NCBI GenBank assembly: GCA_963814275.1
Contig: CAWFCE010000002.1
Location: 702,919 to 766,918, forward strand
Length of the DNA stretch: 64,000 nucleotides
Source: Candidatus Parcubacteria bacterium
GTDB taxonomy: Bacteria > Patescibacteriota > Patescibacteriia > Patescibacteriales > UBA12075
Reading direction: 5' to 3'
Shown: in pieces, positions 2,366 to 60,696 of the stretch
Layout: every line of letters starts with the position of its first letter
How positions within the stretch are numbered: position 1 is the stretch's first letter
Program-made: the position numbers and the translations under genes
The notes under the pieces: generated by a model
The model's input: the letters and a program-made list of their open reading frames with translations, nothing else
The model's database searches: none
Told to the model about the DNA's origin: nothing

Positions 2366-5300
2366 TCAAAATGATCTTAGTTGTTTTTCCAGTTTTTCTT
2401 TCTCGGCTCCGAATTCCTTGAGCCGGTTTTTTTCCTTGTCGATTATCGGCTGGGGTGCCCGCTCCATGAAATTATTGTCCGCCAGCTTGTTTTCGGTCAT
2501 ATTAATAAGCTGTTCAAGCCGCCCGATCGATTCCCGGAGGCGCTTCCTTTCTTTCTCCTCGTCGACCGCGCCCAATAAATAGACCTCGGTATCTCCGACC
2601 GGGGCGAAAATCGCCTTCTCGGGCCTGGAAGCTTTCGCTTCGCTTATTTCTATATCCCCGATTCCGGTCCGCATGCCCCTGATCAATGCTTCATTTTCCC
2701 TAATCAAACCGGCTTTGCCGCCGGCATATATAAGCGCTTTTATTTTCCGTCCCGGCTCGACCTTATTCTCGGCGCGGGCGTTGCGGATCGATTCGATGAT
2801 ACTCTTGATTGTTTCAAAATCATTTTTAACCCCTTCTTCCGAAAATTTTTCGATCTCATCGTTTTTTCGCGGCCACTCGGCAACAATCAGGTCTTTTCTG
2901 CCCATTTCTTCCCAGATCTTTTCCGTTACGAAGGGGATGAACGGATGCCAAAGCTTCAGGATATTTTCCAATACGTAAAGTAAGACTTTGTCCTTTTCCG
3001 GGCTGTTATCGAATTTAGTCGCCTCGATATACCAGTCCGCCAATTTGCTCCAGGTGAAATCCCTCAGTTCTTCTCCGGCCAGGGAAAAATTATATGTAGA
3101 TAGATGGTTCGTAACGGCTTCGATGGCGCTGTCCAATTCGGATAATATCCATTTGTCGGAAAGAACCAGCTTGTCAAAATTAATTCCTGCCATCCGCTGC
3201 CTGCCATCCGCTGTTTGTAAAATATATCTTGCCACATTCCAAAGCTTATTGACCAGATTGCGCGCGGATTCGACTTTTTCTTCATAATAACGCGAATCGT
3301 TGCCCGGAGTGTTGCCGGATATCAGGCTGAAACGCAGGGCGTCAGTGCCGTATTGCTTGGCCACCTCTATCGGATCGATCCCGTTGCCCAGGGACTTGGA
3401 GAATTTGTTGCCGTTCTTGTCGCGCAACATGCCGTGTATATAAACGTCCCTGAAGGGAATATCGGCAAGCGCGTAAGTCGACATCAGGATCATCCTGGCC
3501 ATCCAGAAGAATAATATCTCATACCCCATCTGCATCCAGGCGGTCGGATGGTATTGTCTGAAGTCATCGGTCGCATCCGGCCAGCCCAAAGTCGAAAAGG
3601 TCCACAGCCCGGAGGAGAACCAGGTATCGAGCGTATCCTCATCCTGGACCCAGCCTTCGCCCTCCGGCGGCTGCTCGCCAACGTAAGTCTCAAATGTCGA
3701 ATGACGAATGTCGAATGATGAATTTTTCACTGTTTCGATTTCCAAAGCGATTATCCCGTTTTTTTCGATTTTTTCGGCGTATCCGGGAATTTTTTTCCAG
3801 AATTCCGCAATGTCGTCCTTCGATTTGCCCGGGTAAATTATGTTGGCATTATATTTATCGAAAAGTTCATCGCTGTTTTTGAATTTAACCGCCTTGCCGA
3901 TTTTGACCCTGATGCTTTCGAAAATTTTGTCGTTTTCGATATAGTTCAAGGTGATATCATCGCCGGTCTTGATTTTGCCGAAATAACGGTCAGGCTCCTC
4001 AGGGTTTAACGCCCTGGTTTCCACCGTTTTTTTGCCGCTTTTTATCAAGTCGTACATTTCCCGGTTCCGAAAATTCAATTCGACATTCGACATTCGTGAT
4101 TCGGCATTTGCACGGTACCATACGGGTATGCGGTGCCCCCACCAGACTTGCCGGGAAATGCACCAGTCGCGGAGATTATCGATCCAGTGCAAGTATTGCT
4201 TTTCGAAGCGCTCGGGATTTATTTTGATGGTTTTGCCTTTGTCGCCGTTAAGGCCGGTCGTGACTGCCTCGCGCATCAAGTCCTTCAGGGTTTTGCCCCG
4301 GCCGGGAATTATTTTATTGACCATTACGAACCATTGCTCCATTGGAATGACCTCAACGATATCCTTGAAGCGGTCTGATTTGCCGATATTGTGGACGATT
4401 TCTTCTTCTTTTTCCATTAACCCCTTGTCTTTGAGCCACCCGACCATTTTTTCCCTGGCTTCGGTTACTGTCAGCCCGGCGTAATCCCGGCCGGCCTCTG
4501 CGGTCATGCGCCCGTCTTCACCGATAACCTTGATCAATTCCAGGTTATGCCTGTTTTTCAATTCATAATCGACCATGCTGTGCGCCGGCGTTACGCCGAC
4601 CGCGCCGGTCCCGAATGCCGGGTCGATTTCCGGGTCTGCGATTATTTTGATCATTAACGGTTTCTTGGCGCCAATGTCAACCTTGAACTCCCGACCGATA
4701 TATTCTTTGTAGCGGTCATCCTCCGGGTTGACCGCCACCGCCGTATCGCCGAGCTTGGTTTCCGGACGGGTGGTTGCGATCTTGATCGGGAAATCAGGCG
4801 AGTACTTGAATGTATAGAGTACGGCCTTTTGCTCCTCATGCTCCAATTCATCATCCGAGCAGGTCGATTGGCCCTTTACCGACCAGTTCACTACGCGGTA
4901 GCCTTTCTCTATCAAACCGTCATTGTACATTTTTACAAATACCTGGTTGACCGCCCGTGATCTGGCTTCATCAAAAGTATAAGACAGGCGCGACCAGTCG
5001 CAGCTGGTGCCCATGGTCCGGATCTGCTTCAGGATAGTCGCCTTTGAATCTTCGGCAAAATCGCGGATAATATCCAGAAGTTTTTCCCGTCCGAGTTCCT
5101 GCCGGGGATTTGGCATGCCTTCCCCGATCAATTTTTTCTCGACCTTGGCCTGGGTCGCTACGGCCGCGTGGTCGGTACCGGGCAAAAGCAAGACTTTCTT
5201 CCCGTTCATCCGCTGGAATCTGGTTTCGATATCCATGATCGTATTCTCCAGGGCATGGCCGAGATGAAGCACTCCGGTCACGTTCGGCGGCGGCATGGCA

Positions 5301-9033: not shown

Positions 9034-9915
9034 ATGAATAAATTCAAAATTGCCATATCAATAATTTTTTTAATGAGCGGGATAATTTCCGGTTCTTTTT
9101 TGCTGATGAAGCCAGATAACATCCCCGGTCTATTATCAATAACGGCGGCGCGGGCGCAGAGCGTGGCACAGAAAGACAGCGATTATGACGGATTGACCGA
9201 TGAGATCGAGACCGCCGTATACCGGACCGACCCCAATAACGCCGATACCGACAACGACGGCTATCTGGATGCGACGGAAGCGATTGCCGCGACCGATCCG
9301 CTCAACCCGTATGACCCGGCCGGACCCACCGCGGCCGCGGGCGTAAGCGCGCCGGCTTCAAGTCTGCCTTGGTTCATCACCAGGGCGGCGGCTATTACCT
9401 CTTACGTCCTGATGTTTTTTATTATCGTCTTCGGGGAAGGCATGGCGGCCGGCTATATTTACCGGTTTTTGAGTCCGGTCCGGGCCTGGGTGGTGCACAA
9501 ATACCTGGGCATCGCCCTGGGTGTTTCGCTTCTGGTCCATATTTTTTCCCTTTTGTTCGATAATTACATCGCCCTAGGCCTGTCCGATATCCTCTTGCCG
9601 TTTACCGCCGATTACCGGCCGGTATTTTTGTCATTCGGCATCGTCGGTTTCTATATGCTGTTGATCATCGTATCAAGCTCTCTCCTTATCCGCCTGCGGC
9701 TACCGCGTTTCTGGATCAATATCCATTATTTTGTCTATCCGTTTTTTATTTTTTCTTTCATTCACGGCGTTTTTATCGGCAGCGATTCCGGCTTGCCGCT
9801 GATGCAAGCGACATATTGGCTGACCGGGATCATATTTTTTATCTTATTAATGCATCGTTTACTATTATTTCGCTCGAGGCGCGTTAGCACGCAGCACGCA
9901 GCACGCAGCACGTAG
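9034..9915 (+). CDS. Ferric-reductase-like bis-heme transmembrane protein (YedZ/NOX TM-domain type) with N-terminal secreted TSP3-repeat region
   Basis: Signal/TM, DSDYDGLTDEIE and DTDNDGYLDATE Ca-binding repeats. Six TM helices with His pairs HKYLGIALGVSLLVH (H-x13-H) and HYFVYPFFIFSFIH (H-x12-H), as in ferric reductase/NOX heme ligands. The ORF's last codons run into a heptamer repeat. Confidence 0.7.
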   Translation: MNKFKIAISIIFLMSGIISGSFLLMKPDNIPGLLSITAARAQSVAQKDSDYDGLTDEIETAVYRTDPNNADTDNDGYLDATEAIAATDPLNPYDPAGPTAAAGVSAPASSLPWFITRAAAITSYVLMFFIIVFGEGMAAGYIYRFLSPVRAWVVHKYLGIALGVSLLVHIFSLLFDNYIALGLSDILLPFTADYRPVFLSFGIVGFYMLLIIVSSSLLIRLRLPRFWINIHYFVYPFFIFSFIHGVFIGSDSGLPLMQATYWLTGIIFFILLMHRLLLFRSRRVSTQHAARST

Positions 9916-10012
9916 CACGCAGCACGTAACACGTAACATATAATACTTAATACATAATACTTAATACATAATACATAATACATAATACATAATACTTAAT
10001 ACTAAAAACTTT
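9880..10012. repeat. Family D repeat copy 1: (gcacgca)x~7 heptamer tandem followed by an atacttaatac(at)aatac tandem
   Basis: gcacgcagcacgcagcacgcagcacgtagcacgcagcacgtaacacgtaacatataatacttaatacataatac...; related copies at 30470-30520 and 36432-36505. Confidence 0.6.
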
Positions 10013-29387: not shown

Positions 29388-29752
29388 CATTGTCATTGCA
29401 AGCCTCGCACGCTACGGCGCGAATCGGTCCCGAGGCGTTTTTTAACCTGTCATTGCGAGCGACAGAAATAATTATTATCTGAACGCAGGCCGGAAAAACA
29501 TCAAGAACTCATTTTTACGAACCTGAAGTCGCGAAGCAATCCCGAGGCGCGCGGAACCAGCCCTTTTTACCTTTCTTTTATAAACGTTTTGTGTATTGTG
29601 GCACGGGATTGCTTCGCGACTCCATGATCGAAAAATATACCAGTCAGGTTTTTATCGCAGTTGCAAGAAGCTAATATTTATTTCTGTCGCTCGCAATGAC
29701 AGATTAATTAAGATTGCTTCGCCCCGCAGTGTGCGAGGCTCGCAATGACTGT
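29388..29752. repeat. GC-rich nested-palindrome element, family C copy 1 (~365 bp)
   Basis: Modules tgtcattgcaagcctcgcac..., tgtcattgcgagcgacagaaa, gaagtcgcgaagcaatcccgaggcg, then their reverse complements ggcacgggattgcttcgcgactcc, tctgtcgctcgcaatgaca, gattgcttcgccccgcagtgtgcgaggctcgcaatgac in mirror order. Confidence 0.7.
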
Positions 29753-30158: not shown

Positions 30159-30243
30159 GACTAATTCCCTCCTTTCATGTGTTTTGGTTTTCGATACCTA
30201 AAAATTAGCTCAAGGGGAAGAAAATGTCAATGCGGAACGAGTT

Positions 30244-30425
30244 GTAAAGTTATAAAGTTTGTAAAGTTATAAAGTTTTTAAAGTTTGTAAAGTTGAAAGT
30301 TATAAAGTTTTTAAAGTTTGTAAAGTTGAAAGTTATAAAGTTTTTAAAGTTTGTAAAGTTGAAAGTTATAAAGTTTTTAAAGTTTGTAAAGTTGAAAGTT
30401 ATAATGTTATAAAGTTTTTTAAGGT
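30244..30425. repeat. 33-bp tandem repeat x~5 (aagtttttaaagtttgtaaagttgaaagttata) in a divergent promoter region
   Basis: Direct reading of perfect and near-perfect 33-bp units. Confidence 0.85.
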
Positions 30426-33149: not shown

Positions 33150-33760
33150 AAATAATAATCCGCTATAAACGTTTAGTGTAATGTGGCACGGGATTGCTTC
33201 GCCCCGCAGTGTGTGGGGCTCGCAATGACAGGTTGATTAGGATTGCTTCGTCCCGCAGCGTTTTTATATACTGTCATTGCGAGCGACAGAAAAGATTATT
33301 ATATACGGATAATATTTGGATGAAGATATAAGCAGTTGTTTGAACGTATGTGAAGTCGCGAAGCAATCCCGAAGCGTTTTTTTTCTGTCATTGCGAGCGA
33401 CAGAAATAAATTATGGTTTATGAACCGATTTTGATAAAGTACTATGAAGTTGCTTCCGTGTACGAGAAGTCGCGAAGCAATCCCGAGGCGCGAGGAACCA
33501 GCCCTTTTTACCTCTCTTTTATAAACGCTTAGTGATTTGTGGCACGGGATTGCTTCGCGACTCCATGACCGAAAAATATACCAGTCAGATTTTTATCGCA
33601 GTTCCGATAAGCTAATATGTATTTGCGGTCGCTCGCAATGACAGGTTAATACGGGATTGCTTCGCCCCGCAGTGTGCGGGGCTCGCAATGACAGATTAAA
33701 TTGGATTGCTTCGCTCCCCAGCGTACAGGGCTCGCTGGTACTGTAAAAATGTAATGCTAC
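33150..33760. repeat. GC-rich nested-palindrome element, family C copy 2 (expanded, ~610 bp)
   Basis: Multiple copies of tgtcattgcgagcgacagaaa, gaagtcgcgaagcaatcccgaggcg, ggcacgggattgcttcgc[gactcc/cccgcagtgtgcggggctcgcaatgaca]; ~85-90% identical to 35470-35890 over ~420 bp. Confidence 0.7.
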
Positions 33761-33812
33761 TTTAAAATTATCCGGTATTCGCGATGGAAAAATTTTCTGA
33801 TATAATTGTTGT

Positions 33813-34145
33813 ATGAAGGACTATGTCTATTTCACATATATCGCCACGAATTTTCCCCGTTGTACCGTTTTATACACCGGAATAACCAGCGACCCTTACG
33901 GCCGTGAATGGGAACACCAGAACAAGGAATTTCCCGACAGCTTTTCCGCGCGTTACAATATTAACCGCATTGTTTATTTTGAATATTATGACGATGTGAA
34001 TGTCGCGATCAAAAGAGAGAAGGCGATTAAAGGAAGTTCGAGAAAGAAAAAAATGAAATTGATCGAGTCGATCAATCCGGATTGGTCTGATTTGGTTGAA
34101 AAAATGCGAAATGAGGAAAACGTGGTTGGCAATACGCGCGATTGA
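33813..34145 (+). CDS. GIY-YIG nuclease superfamily protein (small COG2827/UPF0213-type)
   Basis: YVYFTYIATN...LYTGITSDPYGREWEHQN...YFEYYDDVNVAIKREKAIKGSSRKKK pattern. Confidence 0.7.
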   Translation: MKDYVYFTYIATNFPRCTVLYTGITSDPYGREWEHQNKEFPDSFSARYNINRIVYFEYYDDVNVAIKREKAIKGSSRKKKMKLIESINPDWSDLVEKMRNEENVVGNTRD

Positions 34146-34533: not shown

Positions 34534-35393
34534 ATGCCGGCAGCCTATCCTCGGTTATTCCATATTGGCACGCAGAAGGCCGGCTCGACCTATCTGTACA
34601 ATATTCTTGCGCAGCATCCTGATTTGTCGTTGCCAAAGATCAAAGAACCGGCGTATTTTACCACGAATTACGAACGCGGACTGGAATGGTATTCGGGGTT
34701 GTTCGAAGGAGAGGGGATCCGCCTTGATACCACCCCCAAATATTTCCAGTTGGGGGAGAAAGCAGCGCCGCGGATCAAAGAGTATGCCGACAGACATCTG
34801 GCCGAACCGCCCCGCTTCCTCCTGATCCTGCGCAATCCGGTCGATTACCTCAATTCTCATTTCGAAATGCAGAAATACCACGGTTTTTCCGGAATAACCC
34901 CGGGGATTACCCGGAACCGATGGATAAGCTCATTGACCACCTTAGGCGCTACCCCAAGTACCTGGAGCGCGCCCGCTACGCCAAGATTTTGAGGAGCCAT
35001 TGGCTCAGCCGCTGGCCGCTCGAAAATTTTCTGATAGTTTATTTCGAGGATTTCATCGCTGATCCGAATGGAACTGCCAACCGGATCTGCCGTTTTTTCG
35101 GGGTCAGCGAGCATGAGTTCAACACCGCCAATCAAGTGAGCCGCAACAAAATGCTGAGGAATGACTGGCTCTTCCGTCTCCAGTCCTGGACAGTGAAAAG
35201 GGAAGGGATCAAAAATGTTTTGAAGAAAAGCCGCTTGTTCAATTATGCTTATAAGAATGTCCTGACCGGGAAATCAGGCAGTAAATTACCGCCGGGAGAC
35301 CGCCGGGAGATCGCCGCCATGCTCAAGCCCGATGTTGCCGAATTGGAGGTATTGCTAGGCAAGAAGATAGAGGTTTGGCCCGATTTCAAATAA
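34534..35393 (+). pseudogene. Sulfotransferase-family gene interrupted by a frameshift at a C4G4 run (~34905-34920)
   Basis: N-terminal PAPS 5'-phosphosulfate-binding motif GTQKAGSTYL in the 34534 frame. C-terminal sulfotransferase part (FLIVYFEDFIADPNGTANRICRFFGV) in the 34920 frame; junction at taaccccggggatt. Confidence 0.6.
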
Positions 35394-35424
35394 TTTCACC
35401 CTGGCGACTTTTTTTGTCATTTCG

Positions 35425-35895
35425 AACCACCACCTTTCTGTCATTGCGAATCCCGAAGCGTTTTTTACATTGTCATTGCGAGCGACAGAAAAAACTATTA
35501 TCTACGGATATATATGGATGAAGATTTAAGCAGTTGCTTCCGCATACGAGAAGTCGCAAACCAGTCCCGAGGCGTTTTTTACATTGTCATTGCGAGCGAC
35601 AGAAATAAATTATGGTTTATGAACCGATTTTGATAAAGTACTATGAAGTTGCATCCGCATACGAGAAGTCGCGAAGCAATCCCGAGGCGCGAGGAACTAG
35701 CCTTTTTTAACCGCTTCGTAATCAACGCTTAGTGATTTGTGGCACGGGATTGCTTCGCGACTCCATGATCGAGAATAAAACCAATCAGATCGTTATCGCA
35801 ATTACCAGAAGCTAATATGTATTTGCGGTCGCTCGCAATGACAGATTAATTAGGATTGCTTCGCCCCGCAGCGCGCTGGGCTCGCAACGACAGGA
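35425..35895. repeat. GC-rich nested-palindrome element, family C copy 3; direct repeat of copy 2
   Basis: Same module order and orientation as 33290-33700. Confidence 0.7.
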
Positions 35896-35914
35896 TATTA
35901 TTAACAATAAATAT

Positions 35915-49162: not shown

Positions 49163-50603
49163 ATGAAAAATATAATCATTTTAGGCGGCGGTCCGGCCGG
49201 CATGGCTTGTGCGTTGGAACTTAGCAATCACGGAGTTAATTCGACCGTAGTTGAAGCCGATAATAATGTCGGTGGATCGGCGAAAACTTTATTTTTAAAG
49301 AGGGGAATGACACTTTCCGTTCGGATATCGGACCCCATCGTTTTTATTCCAAAAATAAATATCTTTATAAAATGATCGAAGATATTCTGGGTGATGATTG
49401 GATATTGGTTGATCGCCTTACCAGGCAGTATATTGAGGGCAAGTATTATGATTATCCGATAAAAATACTTAACGCTTTTAAAAATATCGGATTGAAAAGA
49501 GCTATATTAATGGCTATTTCTTATATGGCCGCCTTGATGAAATACCGTTTGTTAAAGAAATTACGAATTTCGAAGAATATATCGTGGCGAATTTTGGCCG
49601 CCGGCTGGGCGAATTCAGCATGCTCAATTATTCACAAAAGATTTGGGGAACAGATTGCAAGAAGCTGCATATAGACTGGGCTGGACAAAGGATCAAGGGA
49701 TTGAATTTGTTTAGCGCCTTAATAAAAGCAATTTCCATCAATAAAAAACAAACCCCTAAAACATTGATTGATCAGTTCTATTATCCGTTAAGAGGTACCG
49801 GAACCATATATGAGACGATTGCTGACAAAATAAATAAAAGAGGAAGCGAAGTATATTTAAACAGCCGGCCGACCAGGATTTACCACAATGGAAAACGCAT
49901 TAATAACGTCGATATAAATATTAACAATAAAGTGGTAAATCGGGCATTGGATAATTTGGTGACTTCAATACCTATTACCACCTTTATTGATTTACTGGAT
50001 CCGGCACCGGACAAAGAGGTGCAAAATGCGATAAATAAATTGAAGTGGCGGTCACAGGTTTATTTATTCATAACTCTTGATAAAAAAAGTATCAGCAAGG
50101 ACAACTGGATTTATTTCCCGAATTTGGAAATACCTTTCGGCAGGATTTCGGAAATGAAAAATTTCAGCAAAGATTGTGTCCCGAAGATAAAACGATTGTT
50201 GTGGTTGAATATTTTGTTTGGAAAGATGATTTTATTTGGCATATGTCGAAAGAAGAATTAACCGAATTAACATTGAAGCCATACCGAACGGGCGGGATTA
50301 TTCGGGCGGAAAGACATCAGGAACGTTTATCACAGAAAAAATCATTTCGTATATCCAGTGTATGATCTGGATTATAATAATAATCTGCATACAATAAAAA
50401 AGTATCTGGACAAATTTGAAAATTTAGAATATATTGGCCGACCGGGACGATTTTTCTATACAAATCAGGACCATAGCTTGGAAATGGGAATAATGGCTGC
50501 CCGCAGTATAATGGAAAATAAGCATTATGATTTAGAAAAAATCGGCACAGATCAAGAATATTTTGAAAATGGTTATATTAAAAACGAAGAAAAAGATGGG
50601 TAA
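49163..50603 (+). pseudogene. FAD-dependent oxidoreductase (amine-oxidase/desaturase-like) in at least 5 fragments
   Basis: N-terminal dinucleotide motif IIILGGGPAGMACALEL; C-terminal YIGRPGRFFYTNQDHSLEMGIMAARS in another frame. Confidence 0.5.
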
Positions 50604-52221
50604 TACGCGACAAATATTTGTTAAGAAAGATTTAATTCAGGATATTGAAAATATTGTTAATGGTATTTTCTCGCCGTTAAAAGGTTTTTTTCGTAAAGAC
50701 GATTTTTGGTCAGTTGCCAATGATATGCGTCTCTCAGACGATACCCCTTGGAGTATCCCTTTTGCCATTCCGATCGAGTCGGGAAACCTATGATGAGCTT
50801 AAAGATGAGAATGAAGTCAAGTTGATGAATGGTGATTCATGGACGGTACTCCAAAACATCGAAGTCTATCCGCACGACAAAGAAGCGCATGCGCGGCTGG
50901 TATATGGTACCCTTGACCAGTCGCATCCGGCAGTTGCGGAGATTATGGGATCAGGAGACTATTTGCTGGGCGGGGATATCGCCGAATATCATATTTCAGA
51001 GGATATCAAGCACAAGGAATTCTATTATTCTCCTGCGGAAACGAAGAAGATGTTTAGCGGAGAAGGGATGGAAGACCGTGGCTGCCTTTCAGACGCGGAA
51101 TGTGCCGCATCGGGGGCATGAGTTTTTGCATCATGAGGCTTTGAAAATTACCGATGGGCTACTCATTCAGTCCGGTGATCGGGGAGAAGAAGATGGCGGA
51201 TTTTAAGGACGAGTATATTTTGGCCGTTTATAAAACTTTGATCGAGCAGGGGGTGTATGGCGAGCGGGCGGTATTGGCGGCATTGCCTCTCAAGATGCGC
51301 TATGCCGGTCCGCGGGAGGCTTTGCACCACGCGCTTATCCGGCGCAACTTCGGCTGTACCCATTTTATCGTCGGCCGCGACCATGCCGGCGTTGGCAATT
51401 TCTACGCGCCCACGGCGGCTCAGGAAATATTTAAGGAATTCAGCAAGGAAGAGTTGGGGATCGAGATTATACCCATGGACGAGGTGGTTTATGACGGGCG
51501 GCGCAAGGTGCACTGCTTTATTGACGAATGCGCTGAAACTGATAAAATAAAATTTAGCGGCACTAAATTACGACGGTATATTGAAAACAAAGAAGTGCCG
51601 CCGGACTATCTCATACGCCCCGAGGTGTATGATATTTTAGTTAACACCAAAAATTCATTGGTTGATGAGATGTATAAAAACAGCAACAATAAAAAGGGCT
51701 TTGTCCTTTGGTTTACCGGGCTTTCCGCCGCCGGCAAGACCACGATTGCGGATAAGGTTTATGAGGAATTGATGGACAACGGTACCCGGCTGGAGCGCCT
51801 GGACGGTGACGTGGTGCGGGAGCGGCTGACCAAGGGGCTCGGGTTCGGCCGCGACGGGCGGATCGAGAACATCAACCGCATCGGCTTCGTGGCCAATCTC
51901 TTGTCCCGGAACGGCGTCGGCGTAATGGCCTCCTTCATCACCCCTTACCGGGAAATGCGCGACCGCCTGCGCGAAGGCGTCCACAATTACATCGAGGTAT
52001 TCGTCGACACGCCGCTCGCGGTCTGCGAAGCGCGCGACCCGAAAGGTCTCTACAAGAAGGCGCGCACCGGCGAAATCCCTCAGTTCACCGGAGTGAGCGA
52101 CCCGTTCGACGCGCCGGCCAATCCCCACATCCGCCTGCAGACCGATTGTCAGAGTCTGGATGAATGCGCGAAAATGGTAGTGGATTATTTGCGGGATAAT
52201 GGGTATTTGGATACTGAGTAA
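50563..52221 (+). pseudogene. Bifunctional sulfate adenylyltransferase / APS kinase (PAPS synthase) interrupted by three successive +1 frameshifts; the 3' 1.07 kb is intact
   Basis: Frame 1: GIFSPLKGFF...MRLSDDTPWSIP (ATP-sulfurylase N-terminal domain). Frame 2: [18 protein letters not shown]. Frame 3: [17 protein letters not shown]. Frame 1 again: GRDHAGVGNFY plus APS-kinase P-loop FTGLSAAGKTTIADKV. Confidence 0.7.
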
Positions 52222-52368: not shown

Positions 52369-54780
52369 ATGAAAAAATTATTTTGGACAATTATATTTTT
52401 ATTTATATTTTGTCTTGCTTCCTGGTTCTGCCCCAGGATAGCTTATGCAGGAAATGATATAAAAACCATAAATATTTATGCCGAAAGAAGCGATACTAGT
52501 TTTTCTAATTATAAGGTTGGTAACTTTGTTACATGGAATAAAATAAGAAACGATGCATATGGATATAGGGTAAACGATAATTTTGAATATGTTCATATGC
52601 GAATACGGGGCAAAGGTGGGGCAATTAATTCTAATAGATTTATGGATTTACAAAGAATTGGGTTAAGTTTTGATACAAGCATTCTCGGAGATAATGTACA
52701 GCTTGAAAGCGTCAAGCTGTACATATTTGGGGCGTCAACAACCATTGACAAGCTAGGCATGAGTTCTGTTGACAGAGAAGTTTCGTTGGTTGATTTTTAT
52801 CCCAGTTCTTCAGTAAAATATACGATTTATGATTATAATAAATTTGGCACTGAAAAGTTAGCAGACAATATCGATCCTGGTGAAAATTTTTCTTTATGGA
52901 AATATAACGAATATAATGTATTTGACATGTATCAGTCAGTTTTTAACAGAATTGATAAAACAGGGTTTACAAATTTAGGATTAAGGTTTGAGTGTGATCG
53001 TGTTAACCATGAACCGTCTTTTGAAAATACACAAGATCAAAACGCATTATTGTATATGTATTTCAGGGACTCGAGAAATCAAAATTTTTGGCCCTATTTA
53101 GAAGTAAGCTATTCCGTTCCAGATGATAATGAAGAATTAAATCCGGTAGTTGTTGTGCCCGGCATTGGGGGGAGTTGGGAGAAAGACCGGGAGTGGGTGA
53201 TTGATCCGATCTTGCATACCTATGATTATCTTCTGGAGGCATTCGAGGCAGCCGGGTATGTGCCGGGAGAGACATTGTTCACTATGCCCTATGACTGGCG
53301 CAACGACAACCGCTACAGCGCGATCCAGCTCCGGGAGGCGATCGAGGCGGCCAAAGGGGACGCGGGCGGGAAAGTCGATATTGTCGCCCATAGCATGGGC
53401 GGACTGGTGGCCCGGTCCTATATCGAGAGCGACAACTACCGGGATGATGTCGATCAGCTGATCTTTCTCGACACCCCGCAAGCCGGGGCGCCCGAGAGCT
53501 ACTTGGCTTATGAAGGGGCGTATCTGCCCGGAATGATCGGCGCGATCAAGAAATTCTATTTCGAGGTCGAGGGGAAGCTGCATGGCTATGACAGCTTGCC
53601 GGAATATTTTCGGGAAAAGGTAATCGGCCTGGGCCAGCTTCTGCCTGATTACAGCTATTTGTATGATAATACGGGTAATGAGTGGCAGCTCCGCGCGTAT
53701 CCGGATAACTACCCCCGGAATGTATTCCTGGAAGATCTCAATTTGGCGGGAAATATCGACAAACTGCTCATGCGGAGCAATACCTATAATATCTACAGCT
53801 ATGCCGGGGTCATTGATACGGATGATACAACTATGACGGGTTTCCGGGTCGAATTGCCCAAGAAAAATGATCCCGATTGGCTGCATGGCTATCCGGTTAA
53901 TTTGTCGTCTGCCAAAGACGGGGTGATGATGGGCGCGGGCGACGGCACGGTGCCGCTGGAGAGCCTTGTAGCCCTGCCAATGGCGGACAGCAAAATCGTC
54001 GCTTCGGCCGGACACCGCGAGATCGTCACCCAGGCCCAGCAGGAGGTGATCGAAGCCCTGACCGGCGAGCGTCCGGATGATTTCGTGTCCGGCCCTCTGG
54101 CCAGGATCAAGCGGCTCTTATTCGTGCGCGTCTATTCGCCGGTTGATCTTCTGGTCACCACCCCAGCCGGCGAGCGCCTGGGCTACGACGCGGCCACCGG
54201 CGCGGACATCTTCGAGCCCTTCGGCAGCTTCTATAGCGGGCACAGCGCCGCGGCCGAATTCGCCACCTGGCCGGTGCCTGCGGAGGGTACTTATCAAGTG
54301 GCCCTGACCGGCACGGCGGACGGTTATTACCGGTTGGGGTTCGATGTGCTTACGGATGCGGCGGAGGAAGCCGCAGAGCCGGCCATTTACGGCATTATCC
54401 GGAACGGTGAAAGCAAAAATTACGCATATACTTTGACACCAGACAGCGCCGGACAGACGGAAATTAATCTGAATACGGAAATTAGCCCGAACGATTTTGC
54501 CCGGGATATCGAAGCGATCAACGGCCTGGGCGGCTTCTCGCGCAAAGCAGTCTACAACTATCTCCGGGCGCAGGCGAAGATTATCGGCAAAGAGTGGGAC
54601 AAGCTTGATTCCGGCAGCAAACGCGCCCGACCGTTATTGTCGCTCATCGCCAAAGGCCATCTGCTGGTACTCGAAAAATTACTGGATTTTTATCTTAACA
54701 AGCAATGGATAACGCCGGAGGGGCATGGAGTGTTGCACGGGGATATTGGATGGCTGAGAATTACGTTAGCTGGAAAATAG
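52369..54780 (+). CDS. Secreted LCAT-like / lipase-class alpha/beta hydrolase (803 aa)
   Basis: Signal peptide. VVVPGIGGSW...YDWRNDN...VDIVAHSMGGLVARSY (GxSxG nucleophile elbow). Paralogous to the 56621 gene. Confidence 0.65.
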   Translation: MKKLFWTIIFLFIFCLASWFCPRIAYAGNDIKTINIYAERSDTSFSNYKVGNFVTWNKIRNDAYGYRVNDNFEYVHMRIRGKGGAINSNRFMDLQRIGLSFDTSILGDNVQLESVKLYIFGASTTIDKLGMSSVDREVSLVDFYPSSSVKYTIYDYNKFGTEKLADNIDPGENFSLWKYNEYNVFDMYQSVFNRIDKTGFTNLGLRFECDRVNHEPSFENTQDQNALLYMYFRDSRNQNFWPYLEVSYSVPDDNEELNPVVVVPGIGGSWEKDREWVIDPILHTYDYLLEAFEAAGYVPGETLFTMPYDWRNDNRYSAIQLREAIEAAKGDAGGKVDIVAHSMGGLVARSYIESDNYRDDVDQLIFLDTPQAGAPESYLAYEGAYLPGMIGAIKKFYFEVEGKLHGYDSLPEYFREKVIGLGQLLPDYSYLYDNTGNEWQLRAYPDNYPRNVFLEDLNLAGNIDKLLMRSNTYNIYSYAGVIDTDDTTMTGFRVELPKKNDPDWLHGYPVNLSSAKDGVMMGAGDGTVPLESLVALPMADSKIVASAGHREIVTQAQQEVIEALTGERPDDFVSGPLARIKRLLFVRVYSPVDLLVTTPAGERLGYDAATGADIFEPFGSFYSGHSAAAEFATWPVPAEGTYQVALTGTADGYYRLGFDVLTDAAEEAAEPAIYGIIRNGESKNYAYTLTPDSAGQTEINLNTEISPNDFARDIEAINGLGGFSRKAVYNYLRAQAKIIGKEWDKLDSGSKRARPLLSLIAKGHLLVLEKLLDFYLNKQWITPEGHGVLHGDIGWLRITLAGK

Positions 54781-54787
54781 CGATTTA

Positions 54788-56190
54788 TGTGGTTTAGCCG
54801 TGTATTATAGATTTCTCACTGCGCCGCGGCTCCGTTCGAAATGACAGAAAAGAGAGGATTCGAAATGACAGAAAAGAGAGGATTCGAAATGGCAGAAAAG
54901 AGAGGATTCGAAATGGCAGAAAAGAGAGGATTCGAAATGGCAGAAAAGAGAGGATTCGAAATGGCAGAAAAGAGAGGATTCGAAATGGCAGAAAAGAGAG
55001 GATTCGAAATGGCAGAAAAGAGAGGATTCGAAATGGCAGAAAAAAGGGAAGTTCTGCAGGGATGAAAGTAGCATGGTGGTGTCGGAAAACATGAAATGAT
55101 ACGGCCACATTCGTACTCGACGAACCGCCCATCTTTTTCAATTCGACGACCCCCCCTTCTGTCATCTCGATCCGCCGACGAGGCGGAGAGAGATCTATAA
55201 TACGTGGGTTGCGCAACAAGCAGTCTTTGTGGTTTAGCCGTGTATTATAGATTTCTCACTGCGCTCCGCTCCGTTCGAAATGACAAAAAAGAGAGGATTC
55301 GAAATGACAGAAAAGAGAGGATTCGAAATGACAGAAAAGAGAGGATTCGAAATGACAGAAAAGAGAGGATTCGAAATGACAGAAAAGAGAGGATTCGAAA
55401 TGACAGAAAAGAGAGGATTCGAAATGACAGAAAAAAGGGAAGTTCTGCAGGGATGAAAGTAGCATGGTGGTGTCGGAAAACATGAAATGATACGGCCACA
55501 TTCGTACTCGACGAACCGCCCATCTTTTTCAATTCGACGACCCCCCTTCTGTCATCTCGAGGCCGCAGCCGAGAGATCTATAATACGCGGATAACGCAGG
55601 CGGACGGGTTTGTGGGTGAGCGGAGTATTATAGATTTCTCACTGCGCTCCGCTCCGTTCGAAATGACAGAAAAAAGGGGAGGTTCGAAATGACAGAAAAG
55701 AGAGGATTCGAAATGACAGAAAAGAGAGGATTCGAAATGACAGAAAAGAGAGGATTCGAAATGACAGAAAAGAGAGGATTCGAAATGACAGAAAAGAGAG
55801 GATTCGAAATGACAGAAAAGAGAGGATTCGAAATGACAGAAAAAAGGGAAGTTCTGCAGGGATGAAAGTAGCATGGTGGTGTCGGAAAACATGAAATGAT
55901 ACGGCCACATTCGTACTCGACGAACCGCCCATCTTTTTCAATTCGACGACCCCCCTTCTGTCATCTCGATCCGCCGACGAGGCGGAGAGAGATCTATAAT
56001 ACGTGGGTTGCGCAACAAGCAGTCTTTGTGGTTTAGCCGTGTATTATAGATTTCTCACTGCGCTCCGCTCCGTTCGAAATGACAGAAAAGAGAGGATTCG
56101 AAATGACAGAAAAGAGAGGATTCGAAATGACAGAAAAGAGAGGATTCGAAATGACAGAAAAAAGGGGAGGTTCGAAATGACAGAAAAAAA
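54788..56190. repeat. Higher-order tandem array: ~390-440 bp super-unit x3.5, each holding 4-9 perfect copies of a 24-bp unit (ttcgaaatgacagaaaagagagga), a conserved ~140-bp tail and a ~60-bp header
   Basis: Headers tgtggtttagccgtgtattatagatttctcactgcgc at ~54788, 55227, (variant) 55618 and 56026. Tails ...agggaagttctgcagggatgaaagtagcatggtggtgtcggaaaacatgaaatgatacggccacattcgtactcgacgaaccgcccatctttttcaattcgacgaccccccttctgtcatctcga. No unique spacers. Confidence 0.9.
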
Positions 56191-56208: not shown

Positions 56209-56610
56209 ATGAGAAAATATCATAACTTTGATACCCAAAAATATCGTTTCGATGTTTATATTTTGAGTAATTATGATCGTATAGTTTTCTATGTCGGCTA
56301 CACGAACAGTCTTGCCCGCCGCATAATTGAGCATCGGCTGGGTATCGGCAGTAAATTTACTGCCAAATATAAATGTTTTTATCCGGTTTTTTATGAAAGC
56401 TATCAATATGTATATGACGCGATAAGCCGGGAAAAAGAAATGAAAAAGTGGAGAAGAGCGAAAAAATTGAAATTGATCGAAGAAAATAATCCACAGTTTG
56501 TTGATTTGAGCAGAAATATATTCGAAGAGTTTGATTTGGATAATAAAGCGGTCAAGTCAGTCGCGACAGAATTATCGCTTAGAGCAGGAAAACAAACAGA
56601 TTATAAATAA
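56209..56610 (+). CDS. GIY-YIG nuclease superfamily protein (COG2827/UPF0213-type)
   Basis: RFDVYILSNYDRIVFYVGYTNSLARRIIEHRLG...AKY...PVFYESY...AISREKEMKKWRRAKKLKLIE. Confidence 0.75.
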   Translation: MRKYHNFDTQKYRFDVYILSNYDRIVFYVGYTNSLARRIIEHRLGIGSKFTAKYKCFYPVFYESYQYVYDAISREKEMKKWRRAKKLKLIEENNPQFVDLSRNIFEEFDLDNKAVKSVATELSLRAGKQTDYK

Positions 56611-56620
56611 TATCAATACT

Positions 56621-59197
56621 ATGCGCAAGATTATCATTTCGATTTTTATCATCGGCGCGTTGTTATTGCCGATTACGTTTAGCGCCAACCGGATAGCAGT
56701 CAGGATCGGAGAGACGGCCACCCAGCCGAGCCTGTATATCGATACCGAAGTGATCTGGACCGCGGAAGACAGTCCGTATGTGATCGGCAGCTACCCGAAT
56801 GCTTCACTCTATATCGCCCCGGGCGGGTCTTTGTTCATCGAGCCGGGCGTGGCGGTCATGATGTATGACGGGGCCAGTATCCGGGTGGACGGGGAATTGT
56901 TCCTGAATGGCGGGCCCGATAACCCGGTAATTATTACGTCTCATTGGGACGATGCCGATGAGGGCGCCGGTCCGGACGGGCGGGAGCCGGCGCCGGGAGA
57001 CTGGCAGGGGATTTACGTGGAGGATGACGGCTATCTCAGCCTGGAGAACACGGCTATCCGCTACGGCGGTTATCAGACCTATTTGTATGACCGGGCGACA
57101 GACGGCTATTGGATAGGGAACCGCGCCCGGGCCCAGGAGGATAACGGGCGCGCAGTCGGCGCGATCAATATGGTCGGCGAGGGGAACATAGAGATTGAAG
57201 ACTCGGTAATTACCGGAAATACGATCGGCCTGTGGATCGCCGCCGCCGCCGTCGGCGAGGAAGACAAGGAAATCACGATCAGCGGCAGCGAAATATGGGG
57301 CAATACGGCCGCGGGGATAATAAACGACACCGAATATGTGATAAATGCGGAAGAGAACTGGTGGGGCGACAATTCCGGACCCTACCACGAGACTGGTAAC
57401 CCGGCAGGCTTGGGGGAGAGGCTGGTCGGACCGGTCGATTTCGACAATTGGCTGACGCGCGAAAATGGCGGGGACGAAGAGAGCGGTCCGTATCCGGTGA
57501 TCATAGTCCCGGGGATCGGCGCTTCGGTCAACCTGGACCTGATGATCGGGGGCATTTTCAACGATAACTGGAAGATGTTCGACCATACCTACGACGGGAT
57601 CATCGAGGCCTTCAAAGCGATGGGATATGAAGAGGATATAGACCTGTACATCTGCTACTATGACTGGCGGCAGGACAATGCCGTCTCGGCCGCGGAATTC
57701 CTGAAGCCGCTCATCGACCGGGCTCTGGCGGCCAGCGGCTCGTCCAAGGTGAACATAGTCGCCCATAGCATGGGCGGCCTGGTGGCCCGGAGCTATATCC
57801 AGGGCGATAATTACGGAAATGACGTGGATAATCTGTTCCTGATCGGCACGCCTAACCACGGCTCATCAGACATCTATCCGGTCTGGGAGGGCGGTTATGT
57901 GCCGAAGAATTGGGATCACCGTGTAATTATGAATGCCTATATTAACTTATTGAAGGTTAAAGGTTGGAGTAAATCCAGTTATGAAACTGTTCACCATTAT
58001 ATTCCTTCTGTAAAACAACTCCTGCCTGTTTATAGCTATATCCATCCCGTAAATGATCCGGAAAACATTTTGAATTATGTTGATATGACCGTACTCAATA
58101 ATTTTCTGCTTGATCTAAACAGTGATATTCCAACGCTTAATGACCGGGCGAAAGTCAGCGTCATCTCCGGCAATGGCCAGGATACGGTCAATATGGTCCC
58201 GGTGATTGAAGCCAGCGAAGAAGCGCCGCTTTGGATGGATGGTAAACCCGTACCGCTTGATCCGGCAAAAAACGATACGGCCGGCGACGGCCGGGTATTG
58301 CTATCCTCATCGGAGATCCAGAGCTATTTCGCCCAGACCCTCTCCGGCAGCCACGGCGCGATCGTCAGCCTGGCCGAGCCGCTAATCGCGACAGAATTGA
58401 ATAAGTATCTGGATATCATGTACCCGGCGCCGGTAATCAATTCGGAGATGCTGGTCTGGGTCGCCTCGCCGGTGGATATTGAGATCAATGACCCGGTTGG
58501 TAAAACGATTTCCTCGTCTATAAACGATATACCGCTGGCCCGATACACTTCGGAGTCGAAGCCGGACGGGGTCAAGCTCATTTCCATCCCCAATCCGGTG
58601 GCCGGAAAATATGAGATTCATCTGACCGGCAACGGCGCGGGCGAATACCATCTCGGCCTGGAATACGCCGATTATACCGGCAGCAAAGAAGACTATTCCG
58701 CCCTGGTCCAGGGCGAGGTCGCGCCGGGTGAAACCAGGGAATACGCGGTTGCCTATGATCCGCAGGCGGAAAGCCCGGTAGGCGGTATTGAATCCGGCGG
58801 TATTACCATCGACAGTACCATCGCCGATATTGATCGACTTTATGAAACGGGCGAGATATCGAAAGAAGCAGCCAGGGATAATCTGGTAAAATCGCTGGAA
58901 TGGATAAAAAGATATGAAGAAAAATACGGCGAAAGGCTGGAGTTACGCGATAAAGTAGCGGACCAGATCATGGACAAATGTTCTGACAAGAGAAGCGACA
59001 AGTGGTGCGCCGGACATATCGGGAAAAAGATCGGCCAGGTAATATACATATTAGACGGTCTGCACGCGATGATAGTGAAGGTGAAATATAATTTGTTGCT
59101 AGCCCAGCTCAAATCTTATTACCGGAAAAACTGGGTAAGCGCGCCGGCTTATGGTATAATTAAGGAAGATATTGAATATTTAATTGATAATTTATGA
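56621..59197 (+). CDS. Secreted protein with N-terminal parallel beta-helix repeats and an LCAT-like alpha/beta hydrolase domain (paralogue of the 52369 gene)
   Basis: Likely start MRKIIISIFIIGALLLPITFSA (signal peptide). NTIGLWIAA...GNTAAGIIND beta-helix-like repeats. VIIVPGIGAS...YDWRQDN...VNIVAHSMGGLVARSY. Confidence 0.65.
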   Translation: MRKIIISIFIIGALLLPITFSANRIAVRIGETATQPSLYIDTEVIWTAEDSPYVIGSYPNASLYIAPGGSLFIEPGVAVMMYDGASIRVDGELFLNGGPDNPVIITSHWDDADEGAGPDGREPAPGDWQGIYVEDDGYLSLENTAIRYGGYQTYLYDRATDGYWIGNRARAQEDNGRAVGAINMVGEGNIEIEDSVITGNTIGLWIAAAAVGEEDKEITISGSEIWGNTAAGIINDTEYVINAEENWWGDNSGPYHETGNPAGLGERLVGPVDFDNWLTRENGGDEESGPYPVIIVPGIGASVNLDLMIGGIFNDNWKMFDHTYDGIIEAFKAMGYEEDIDLYICYYDWRQDNAVSAAEFLKPLIDRALAASGSSKVNIVAHSMGGLVARSYIQGDNYGNDVDNLFLIGTPNHGSSDIYPVWEGGYVPKNWDHRVIMNAYINLLKVKGWSKSSYETVHHYIPSVKQLLPVYSYIHPVNDPENILNYVDMTVLNNFLLDLNSDIPTLNDRAKVSVISGNGQDTVNMVPVIEASEEAPLWMDGKPVPLDPAKNDTAGDGRVLLSSSEIQSYFAQTLSGSHGAIVSLAEPLIATELNKYLDIMYPAPVINSEMLVWVASPVDIEINDPVGKTISSSINDIPLARYTSESKPDGVKLISIPNPVAGKYEIHLTGNGAGEYHLGLEYADYTGSKEDYSALVQGEVAPGETREYAVAYDPQAESPVGGIESGGITIDSTIADIDRLYETGEISKEAARDNLVKSLEWIKRYEEKYGERLELRDKVADQIMDKCSDKRSDKWCAGHIGKKIGQVIYILDGLHAMIVKVKYNLLLAQLKSYYRKNWVSAPAYGIIKEDIEYLIDNL

Positions 59198-59678: not shown

Positions 59679-60152
59679 GAAACCGGTGATCAAGCCGCCA
59701 GCTTCAAGCGCCGGTTGATAAGATTTTATTTATAAATTCTTTATATATTATTTAAAATTTAATCATATCGGTTTGTTAGAATATTATTAGGATATAATTA
59801 ATTAATATTAATATAATAATAGTTATCGAAAGTGGGCTTATTCGGCTTCTTAAAGCTGTCATTCTGGAGGCCGCAGGCCGATAGAATCCCGAGCCACAAT
59901 ACTCCGTCCCGGTATAACCGCCGTTCAACTCATCGCGCCACCTGGCACAGTACGGGGGTTAATGACGTTTTTCATAAACGCCACGGGGCCCTATCGCCCC
60001 TGCGGGGCTCCAGGGTGACAGGTTTAGGAACCGTTAATTCAAGAGTTAACTCTGTAATTAATATAATCGACAAAATTCAATAATAAGGGAAAGGTACAGT
60101 ATGGGCTCTCGTTCCGCAACACGCGGGGCGGGAGCTCTGCTGTTTCTATTCA

Positions 60153-60696
60153 GTAAACAGTAAATAGTAAGCAGTAAACAGAAACAAAAAACCGCCCTTG
60201 GCAGTTTGGGAACGGAACTTTAATAATCAAATATTATGCGATGGAAGCTTAACTATATGACACAAGATATTAATCATTTTACCCATTTGATCGCCTGGCA
60301 GAAAAACCATTCCGTATTATTGGATTTATATGGTATATCTAAAAAATTTCCCAGTGAAGAATTATTTGTTTTAGTAAGCCAGATAAGAAGAGCCGCTTTA
60401 TCCGTAACCGCTAATTTAGCGGAAGGTTATGGTCGTTATCATATAAAGGATAGGCTCAGATTTTATGTCCAGGCGAGAGGCTCGAATACTGAGCTGCAAA
60501 ATCATATAATAGTAGCTCATGACCTTGATTATATAGACGATTCTGAATTCGAACGATTAAAAGCGGCAATATTCGAAGGCTATAAATTGATTTGCGGATT
60601 AATCAAAAGTACAAATAATATGCTAAATTCCTAAGTTACTAACTTCCTACCGTCGCATAATAAAATTCTGTTTACTGTTTACTATTTACTGTTTAC
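60153..60696. mobile_element. IVS-like cassette: four-helix-bundle gene enclosed by near-perfect 29-bp inverted repeats (60153-60181 / 60668-60696)
   Basis: gtaaacagtaaatagtaagcagtaaacag versus rc of ctgtttactgtttactatttactgtttac (1 mismatch). Confidence 0.55.
60236..60634 (+). CDS. Four-helix-bundle protein (TIGR02436 / 23S rRNA intervening-sequence protein family)
   Basis: HLIAWQK...LLDLY...FPSEELFVLVSQIRRAALSVTANLAEGYGR...FYVQARGSNTELQNHIIVAHDLDYI: typical family signature. Confidence 0.75.
   Translation: MRWKLNYMTQDINHFTHLIAWQKNHSVLLDLYGISKKFPSEELFVLVSQIRRAALSVTANLAEGYGRYHIKDRLRFYVQARGSNTELQNHIIVAHDLDYIDDSEFERLKAAIFEGYKLICGLIKSTNNMLNS

Follow-up and report, generated by a model that had tools for sequence, protein, structure and literature searches.

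The subject of this report is a tandem-repeat array of ~1.4 kb (54788-56190) in a Candidatus Parcubacteria genome, together with the gene for a small GIY-YIG nuclease that begins just downstream of it; all coordinates refer to the window, that is, the whole stretch of 64,000 nucleotides of the 1,274,625-bp contig CAWFCE010000002.1 that was analysed. A gene for an LCAT-like hydrolase (52369-54780) forms the upstream flank of the array, and a second LCAT-like hydrolase gene (56621-59197) lies beyond the nuclease gene. A first-pass annotation of the same DNA had described this position between the hydrolases and upstream of the GIY-YIG gene correctly, but had not connected the nuclease to the repeats. 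By comparison of sequences we consider it probable (roughly 0.78) that the array is an amplified cluster of Ssn-related motifs (SRMs)—hairpin repeats preceded by a GTC tag—adjoining the gene of its partner nuclease, a member of the Ssn family acting on single-stranded DNA. The elements were delimited by a signature scan, by Tandem Repeats Finder (TRF), by a unit scan, and by exact parsing, and are the following, where a head half means the part of an SRM made up of flank, tag, and 5' stem arm:

54810-54845, minus strand: SRM hairpin of block 1, GTC-ATTTC...GAAAT-C, weak and degenerate (signature scan)
54835-55050, minus strand: block 1, nine units of 24 bp (TRF, unit scan, parsing)
55051-55156, no strand assigned: core copy 1, 106 nt between facing SRM heads, without an open reading frame (ORF) and with no further copy in the window beyond cores 2 and 3 (parsing)
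55160-55195, plus strand: complete two-tier SRM, TGTC-ATCTC-GA-TCCGCC...GGCGGA-GA-GAGAT-C (signature scan, parsing)
55193-55252, no strand assigned: first tail-to-tail SRM junction, ATCTATAATAC...GTATTATAGAT with a 38-nt spacer (parsing)
55250-55284, minus strand: SRM hairpin of block 2 (signature scan)
55274-55441, minus strand: block 2, seven head-half units (TRF, parsing)
55442-55546, no strand assigned: core copy 2, 105 nt (parsing)
55550-55578, plus strand: SRM variant with a shorter inner stem, GGCCGCAGCC (signature scan, parsing)
55576-55635, no strand assigned: second tail-to-tail junction, with a spacer ~35% diverged from the other two (parsing)
55633-55667, minus strand: SRM hairpin of block 3 (signature scan)
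55657-55850, minus strand: block 3, eight head-half units, the first of 26 bp (TRF, parsing)
55851-55955, no strand assigned: core copy 3, 105 nt (parsing)
55959-55994, plus strand: SRM identical to the copy at 55160-55195 (signature scan, parsing)
55992-56051, no strand assigned: third tail-to-tail junction, identical to the first (parsing)
56049-56083, minus strand: SRM hairpin of block 4 (signature scan)
56073-56190, minus strand: block 4, four units and one partial unit, ending 18 nt before the nuclease start codon (TRF, parsing)
56209-56610, plus strand: homologue of ssnA; its 133-aa product, a GIY-YIG nuclease, has a single domain (Pfam PF01541, E = 7.5e-13) and is extended by ~35 aa at the C terminus

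TRF resolved four arrays of 24-bp units, at 54835-55043, 55274-55434, 55657-55843, and 56073-56187, as well as a period of 409 bp spanning 55273-56187, while exact parsing gave 9, 7, and 8 units for the first three blocks and 4 plus one partial unit for the last, so that the higher-order repeat recognized in the first-pass annotation is real. The unit TTCGAAATGACAGAAAAGAGAGGA was matched 27 times at ≤3 mismatches versus 0 expected; all of these matches lay inside the array, and the check for the 24-mer elsewhere, as carried out within the window, accordingly came out negative at that threshold. The units abut head to tail with no spacers between them, unique or otherwise, for which reason the array was rightly held not to be a CRISPR array. 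The three cores, of 105-106 nt, differ solely in a run of C residues, 7 versus 6 in length. The variants said to distinguish the blocks, and to indicate expansion, are likewise present: ATGGCAG occurs in 7 of the 9 units of block 1, a single unit carries ACAAAAAAG, and units of 26 bp, AAAAAAGGGGAGG, are found in blocks 3 and 4. On the minus strand the tag of the ATGGCAG units reads GCCAT, and because this variant fills seven adjacent units of block 1 the multiplication of units was local, via slippage or unequal exchange; since the tag of these seven units is mutated, expansion can evidently proceed without an intact one. The tail SRMs and the junction spacers follow an A-B-A pattern across the super-repeats, from which it follows that whole blocks were duplicated later.

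The nature of the repeat is apparent when both strands are read. On the minus strand the hairpin repeat has the form (Y)GTC-AT[stem]...[stem']AT-C, and in the unit core TCGAAATGACAG one recognizes the head half of a motif that is widespread, the CGTC-tagged repetitive extragenic palindrome (REP) or SRM. Each 24-bp unit is, on that strand, TCCTCTCTTTTC-TGTC-ATTTCGAA, in which a pyrimidine-rich flank precedes the TGTC tag and the 5' stem arm. Every block opens, in plus-strand coordinates, with a complete minus-strand SRM (TGTC-ATTTC...GAAAT-C) and every tail closes with a complete plus-strand SRM (TGTC-ATCTC...GAGAT-C); all seven complete elements of the array read (T)GTC-AT...AT-C, oriented with the GTC tag 5' and a C immediately 3', and TGTC-AT, which is the tag and the AT start of the stem expected of a CGTC-tagged REP, is present in every array element. 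The ~409-bp super-repeat is a head-to-head pair of SRMs, in which the spacer between the heads consists of the 24-bp units plus the 105-nt core, as compared with the usual few nucleotides, such as the 9 nt of locus L009. The header hairpin proposed from the first reading, whose inverted repeat we found as three copies of ATCTATAATAC and four of GTATTATAGAT, is formed by the back-to-back tail ends of two SRMs (ATC-TATAATAC). The tail end CCCCCCTTCTGTCATCTCGA, for its part, does have the likeness to the reverse complement of a unit that had been remarked, but is more than an antisense copy of one, being the start of a complete SRM in the opposite orientation.

In order to avoid circularity, we anchored the covariation test on the flanks and the loop ends only, without imposing pairing. 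Fully complementary triplets were present in 87 of 99 distinct GAT-NNN-loop-NNN-ATGAC sequences versus 1.5 expected, and since those triplets pair and 13 different ones are used, the element is a hairpin whose flanks are fixed while its stem covaries freely. The signature consisting of G-AT with at least three further pairs, and then AT-GAC, occurred 16 times in the window versus 2.2 in shuffled sequences (maximum 6); the stem length in the hairpin detector had been relaxed to 5 bp, the strict 6-bp version having missed the family. As DNA, the SRM at 55160-55195 folds into a two-tier hairpin of -10.2 kcal/mol (z = -2.8), and the shorter variant at 55550-55578 into one of -5.1 kcal/mol.

The adjacent gene encodes a protein of which PF01541 is the only domain, and which is, over residues 16-100, 45.9% identical (E = 1e-14) to the NTS-flanked ssnA ORF of N. 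gonorrhoeae. The numbering of that ORF, which is surrounded by 8 canonical NTS repeats within 1.65 kb, reproduces the published residues Y6, Y17, and E64, and their equivalents in the window protein—Y17, Y28, and E75—are invariant or nearly so in the alignment of homologues. Matches in the PDB, to the UPF0213 proteins 1ywl and 1zg2, were weak (E ~1e-4), and no NCBIfam family matched the nuclease. Because of this protein homology, the conserved residues, and the flanking SRMs, we place the locus within the Ssn/SRM system. In the N. gonorrhoeae record used (L099; NZ_CP119142.1, 2.17 Mb, filed as a plasmid though chromosome-sized) the ssnA ORF has no in-frame ATG: the frame containing Y6, Y17, and E64 starts at ATT/ATA, and an ATG in another frame opens an ORF of 10 codons.

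That system was described in Neisseria, where SsnA, a single-domain GIY-YIG protein of 94 aa, binds the NTS, CGTCATTCCCGCG...GCGGGAATCYRG (Chenal 2025, PMC11893778). Binding is to single-stranded DNA only, and only to the GTC...ATC strand, with no binding of RNA, and cutting occurs a few nucleotides 5' of the tag (PMC11893778); going by the published oligonucleotide lengths, we put the cut 3 nt ahead of the tag's first base. Important for cutting are the three bases that precede the palindrome, and for binding the C that follows it, whereas the loop is dispensable and any loop is tolerated, two half-site oligonucleotides being sufficient (PMC11893778). Cutting of single strands was characterised for four Ssn homologues; in N. 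meningitidis the ssnA-NTS pair reduces transformation by NTS-bearing DNA; and 71% of the ssnA homologues have flanking SRMs (PMC11893778).

We examined the association in 80 metagenome loci chosen only by homology to the window GIY-YIG protein, the search profile having been built from a subset of 11 sequences, inasmuch as the alignment of 38 proteins was too diverse. A hairpin element was found within 400 nt of the gene in 58 of these 80 loci (72%, next to the published 71%), and the density of elements was 2.87 per kb near the gene versus 0.136 per kb farther off, a 21-fold difference. In the favoured layout the elements bracketed the gene, their GTC...ATC strands directed inward on either side. 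Every homologue context that we retrieved individually bore such hairpins, with differing stems and often as an inverted pair bracketing the gene, and loci L013-L018 exhibited the same association. In the window itself, the last array element ends ~100 nt upstream of the nuclease gene, and a second nuclease gene also has elements upstream of it. The likeness to the published system extends to a small single-domain SsnA homologue next to the repeats, a palindrome with a GTC tag on its 5' side and a C directly after it, a stem starting with AT, and the clustering of repeats around the nuclease gene with others scattered. An array that looked merely odd becomes interpretable as an Ssn nuclease accompanied by its own hairpin repeats in a bacterium of the candidate phyla radiation (CPR).

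The locus nevertheless departs from the known Ssn/SRM system in the form of the hairpin, in the host, and in the tandem amplification of the head half. The hairpins here are two-tiered, with a 5-bp outer stem, an internal loop, an inner stem, and a long loop; the host is a member of the Patescibacteria, placed near Falkowbacteria by its DNA polymerase III delta' homologues; tandem iteration reaches 9 copies for the head half and ~3.5 for the whole dimer, which arrangement is absent from the paper of Chenal; and the predicted window nuclease has a C-terminal extension of 35 aa. Several of these departures, along with other results, weigh against our interpretation. The published SRM pattern, HGTCWYN(0-2)YYVSBRHN(0-5)WNVSBRGN(0-2)RNCYNB, had no match in the array, and the outer stem is of 5 bp rather than the published 8-9 bp. 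The unit-bearing SRM folds weakly as DNA (-3 kcal/mol, z = +0.5), and the units of block 1 mostly carry a mutated tag, so that part of the array may no longer be a substrate for an Ssn enzyme. The window nuclease, moreover, lacks the usual bracketing: the upstream elements point away from it and there are none downstream. Finally, the link between cleavage and duplication proposed below is one that we infer from position only. As to the pattern, it misses the array elements because their loops are too long for it; within the window it gave one chance match, in a hydrolase gene, and it matched in only 9 of the 80 homologue loci. Two-tier hairpins near ssnA homologues are a large class that goes undetected by it.

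Other repeat systems resemble the array in part. The CGTC-tagged REPs, among them the Neisseria dRS3 and the Rickettsia RPE-4 and RPE-6, have a CGTC or TGTC tag and stems starting with AT, occur mostly as head-to-head dimers, and had no dedicated enzyme when described (Di Nocera 2013, PMC3733652). The array elements share the C/TGTC tag, the AT first stem pairs, the head-to-head dimers, and the occasional copies within genes (L003); they differ in that the REPs have an 8-9-bp stem, a 4-5-nt loop, and a CCA tail in place of the CTA found here, and were reported as rarely clustered and without an enzyme of their own. Some of the homologue loci (L017, L024, and L028) do have the 8-9-bp stem, the 4-5-nt loop, and the CCA tail. 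In locus L003, an ORF resembling ATP synthase subunit a contains, in frame within its N-terminal region (2741-2790), a complete SRM and a pair of SRM head units, after the manner of the in-frame Rickettsia palindromic elements. The REPs organized as bacterial interspersed mosaic elements (BIMEs) or as REPINs, and served by REP-associated tyrosine transposases (RAYTs, of the IS200/IS605-like Y1 type), are comparable in consisting of short hairpins in inverted doublets and clusters and in flanking the gene of a single-strand-specific enzyme, but their tag is GTAG, their enzyme is an HUH tyrosine transposase and not a GIY-YIG nuclease, and SRMs are not known to be mobile. With CRISPR arrays the locus shares short regular direct repeats of partial dyad symmetry, and differs from them in its abutting units, its want of unique spacers, and a neighbouring gene that is not a cas gene. 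A phylogenomic paper of 2006 on GIY-YIG proteins did not mention repeats, papers retrieved for GIY-YIG proteins together with repeats mostly concerned fungal mitochondria, and a full-text search with the core sequences returned unrelated primers only.

Relatives of the unit were sought, in one genome per species, as two core boxes 24 bp apart (TCGAAATGACAGAA-N10-TCGAAATGACAGAA), which search yielded 11 loci in metagenome-assembled genomes (MAGs) of Bacteroidales, Bacteroidota, Clostridia, and Anaerolineae; one of them (L010, Anaerolineae) was a chance coding repeat and was excluded. In the other ten the box always forms the 3' terminus of an element of greater length, AGATTTCTC-loop-TCGAAATGACAG—the header of the window, tagatttctcactgcgctccgctccgttcgaaatgacag, being of the same design—and that element is followed by 1-4 more boxes, each with an unrelated spacer of ~10 nt. 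Among MAGs, those of rumen and gut Bacteroidales contain the two-tier repeats in abundance, and one Clostridia MAG has them too. In three homologue loci (L014, L015, and L016) a different higher-order array, of ~290 bp, made up of hairpins of the GCCGGGCATTCCTGCCCGGC type and varying in copy number between metagenome samples, lies upstream of the ssnA homologue.

Tandem copying of the head half recurs beyond this locus and is one-sided: among the 256 elements in all the sequences collected, 36 had a further copy of the head half no more than 45 nt away, and only 1 had its tail half repeated in this way. Repeated head halves with different stems, for which the core-box search had not selected, were present in L002 at 4261, in L005 at 2991, and in L009 at 686, and the loci selected by their nuclease contained 32 head-half runs of up to 6 copies. 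The design seen in the window recurs in one of the loci (L047), where the ssnA homologue is immediately preceded by two blocks made of head-half units of 23-25 bp, and a complete SRM caps each block. The periods in other genomes ranged from 17 to 29 bp, being mostly 19-20 and 23-25 bp. The blocks of the window, with up to 9 units, are the largest in this sample, and we found no description of head-half arrays in the literature searched. A copying that is biased to the half bearing the predicted cut site offers a clue to how such repeats spread.

Minus-strand SRM head halves, copied in tandem, have filled the space between facing heads, which also holds the core. By analogy with the Neisseria enzyme, the predicted cut would fall inside the flank of each unit, and in a head-to-head dimer the cut sites of both strands would lie in the spacer between the heads. 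Breaks or stalled replication in that spacer might, judging by the position, seed short duplications of the head half, which slippage or unequal exchange could then expand, first as units and later as whole 409-bp blocks. Most probably the array is not a device but a by-product; a dense set of predicted Ssn sites is the most that it would offer, and these could, again by the Neisseria analogy, lower the recombination of incoming single-stranded DNA at the locus, which effect would fall near two secreted hydrolase genes. Bacteria of the CPR depend on DNA uptake, and a nuclease trimming incoming single strands could, as a speculation, matter to them. A further step, which we regard as rather unlikely, would make head-half arrays the footprints of SRM multiplication itself, a cut 5' of the tag being followed by a repair that recopies the segment from the cut to the arm. 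If that were so, the 24-bp unit would be one cut-to-cut fragment and the locus an active amplification hotspot, in which as many as 9 head halves would be available for pairing with one 3' arm, giving a multi-register ladder of cleavage. In nature the array would then correspond to the hemi-NTS concatemer that was assembled in vitro by Chenal et al. (PMC11893778).

Against the interpretation as an amplified SRM cluster stand other explanations, three of which elaborate suggestions of the first-pass annotation. An artefact of assembly, affecting the copy numbers or else the higher-order arrangement as a whole, we consider improbable. The copy numbers do come from a single assembly, and L001, a short-read contig with the same sequence, breaks off within the array; several window genes look frameshifted, as from possible long-read indel errors; and the C-runs of the cores differ in length. 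The differences between the blocks are nonetheless structured—seven G-variant units, distinct first and last units, and the A-B-A pattern—in a way that no assembler would invent, and comparable arrays occur in independent assemblies. Very unlikely, too, is a structured non-coding RNA transcribed from the TATAAT of the header, with a long stem enclosing the tail. Such a stem does appear when the 409 nt of the super-repeat are folded, better than shuffled sequences on both strands (z = -2.85 and -4.0); it comes, however, from the inverted SRM pair, and is equally a property of DNA. The hexamer is present in each header arm, but no sigma-70-like promoter was found at the headers, and the scan for promoters and terminators gave no more sites than in shuffled sequences. 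Rfam returned no match for the whole window at the gathering threshold and only chance-level ones for the array and for 33-36 kb at E up to 10, the scan for transfer and transfer-messenger RNAs found none, and the core, a 22-mer of which had no match in the metagenome and viral collections, has no relatives there. The header arm ATCTATAATAC is the conserved SRM tail extension (compare ATCTAATAC in L002), and the published SsnA does not bind RNA.

Of the four functional guesses in that annotation, a protein-binding or iteron array came closest, in that the units bear the tag recognized by the nuclease next to them, but it is DNA in single-stranded form that this partner reads. We hold it to be extremely unlikely that the units are duplex sites, phased at 24 bp, for a protein of replication, partition, or transcription: for all the regular spacing and the near identity of the copies, and even with periods of ~20 and 24 bp recurring in other genomes, no replication or partition gene is adjacent, the Ssn nuclease is the only consistently linked gene, and a unit that is half of a covarying hairpin points to structure in a single strand and not to the reading of a duplex. 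Next to no credence attaches to translation of the plus strand into (MTEKRGFE)n peptides, or to a ribosome-loading element, as suggested by a Shine-Dalgarno-like AGAGGA 6 nt before the ATG of each unit and by ORFs of 74, 58, and 58 aa that start at unit ATGs. The ATG is part of the invariant ATGAC head tag, and the purine run is the complement of the common pyrimidine-rich flank (CTTTTCTGTCAT in L047, CCCTTCTGTCAT elsewhere); because the spacers of homologous arrays are unrelated, and without a Shine-Dalgarno sequence, the combination is coincidental. In addition, of the 49 periods measured in other arrays only 8 are divisible by three, and the 26-bp units of blocks 3 and 4 break the frame within the array itself. 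The last of the guesses, a recombination hotspot that duplicated the hydrolase gene, does not agree with the ages of the two duplications: the flanking hydrolases are only 29% identical and the super-repeats almost wholly so, so that the duplication of the former is far older and the array did not produce it.

Elsewhere in the window, hairpins with another stem (GGATTGC...GCAATGACAG) occur at 29712, 33192, 33655, and 35380-35900, in part next to the second nuclease gene, so that the window holds two nuclease-repeat pairs with different stems:

33192-33229 and 33655-33692, minus strand: strong two-tier SRM hairpins, ATTGC/GCAAT type, lying just upstream of the second ssnA-like gene (signature scan; DNA fold -14 kcal/mol, z = -4.2)
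33801-34145, plus strand: second ssnA-like GIY-YIG gene, directly downstream of the hairpin copies (hmmsearch match at 33801-34142, E = 2.3e-30)
35380-35900, no strand assigned: SRM cluster with a head half, GTCATTTCGAA, followed by GTCATTGCGAATCC 24 nt later, and with composite repeats of 115 bp

The 115-bp composite repeats read TGTCATTGCGAGCGAC ... GTCGCGAAGCAATCC around ~85 nt. Isolated SRM hairpins lie at 29712-29749 and at 59858-59888, the latter ~350 nt from a 23S_rRNA_IVP (four-helix-bundle) gene at 60236-60634. Exact-protein look-ups gave no record for the second nuclease or for the upstream hydrolase, and the unit pattern had no match in viral contigs. The tail core was tried as a decayed nuclease gene, which candidate was dropped, there being no similarity to the GIY-YIG gene or to any other window sequence.

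A sulfotransferase gene (34534-35393) and an ATP-sulfurylase/APS-kinase gene (50563-52221) each appear split into overlapping ORFs, being either pseudogenes or the result of assembly indel errors, which alternative bears on the trust to be placed in the homopolymer lengths of the array. The window also contains numerous heptamer tandem repeats, e.g., at 3693, 4078, 7393, 9886-10002, and 18728, and an 18-copy array of a 9-bp unit with a higher-order period of 33 bp at 30242-30417, all of them unrelated in sequence to the SRM units. Between 40000 and 50000 the GC content is ~28-34%, versus ~45-58% elsewhere in the window, and this region may be an acquired island.

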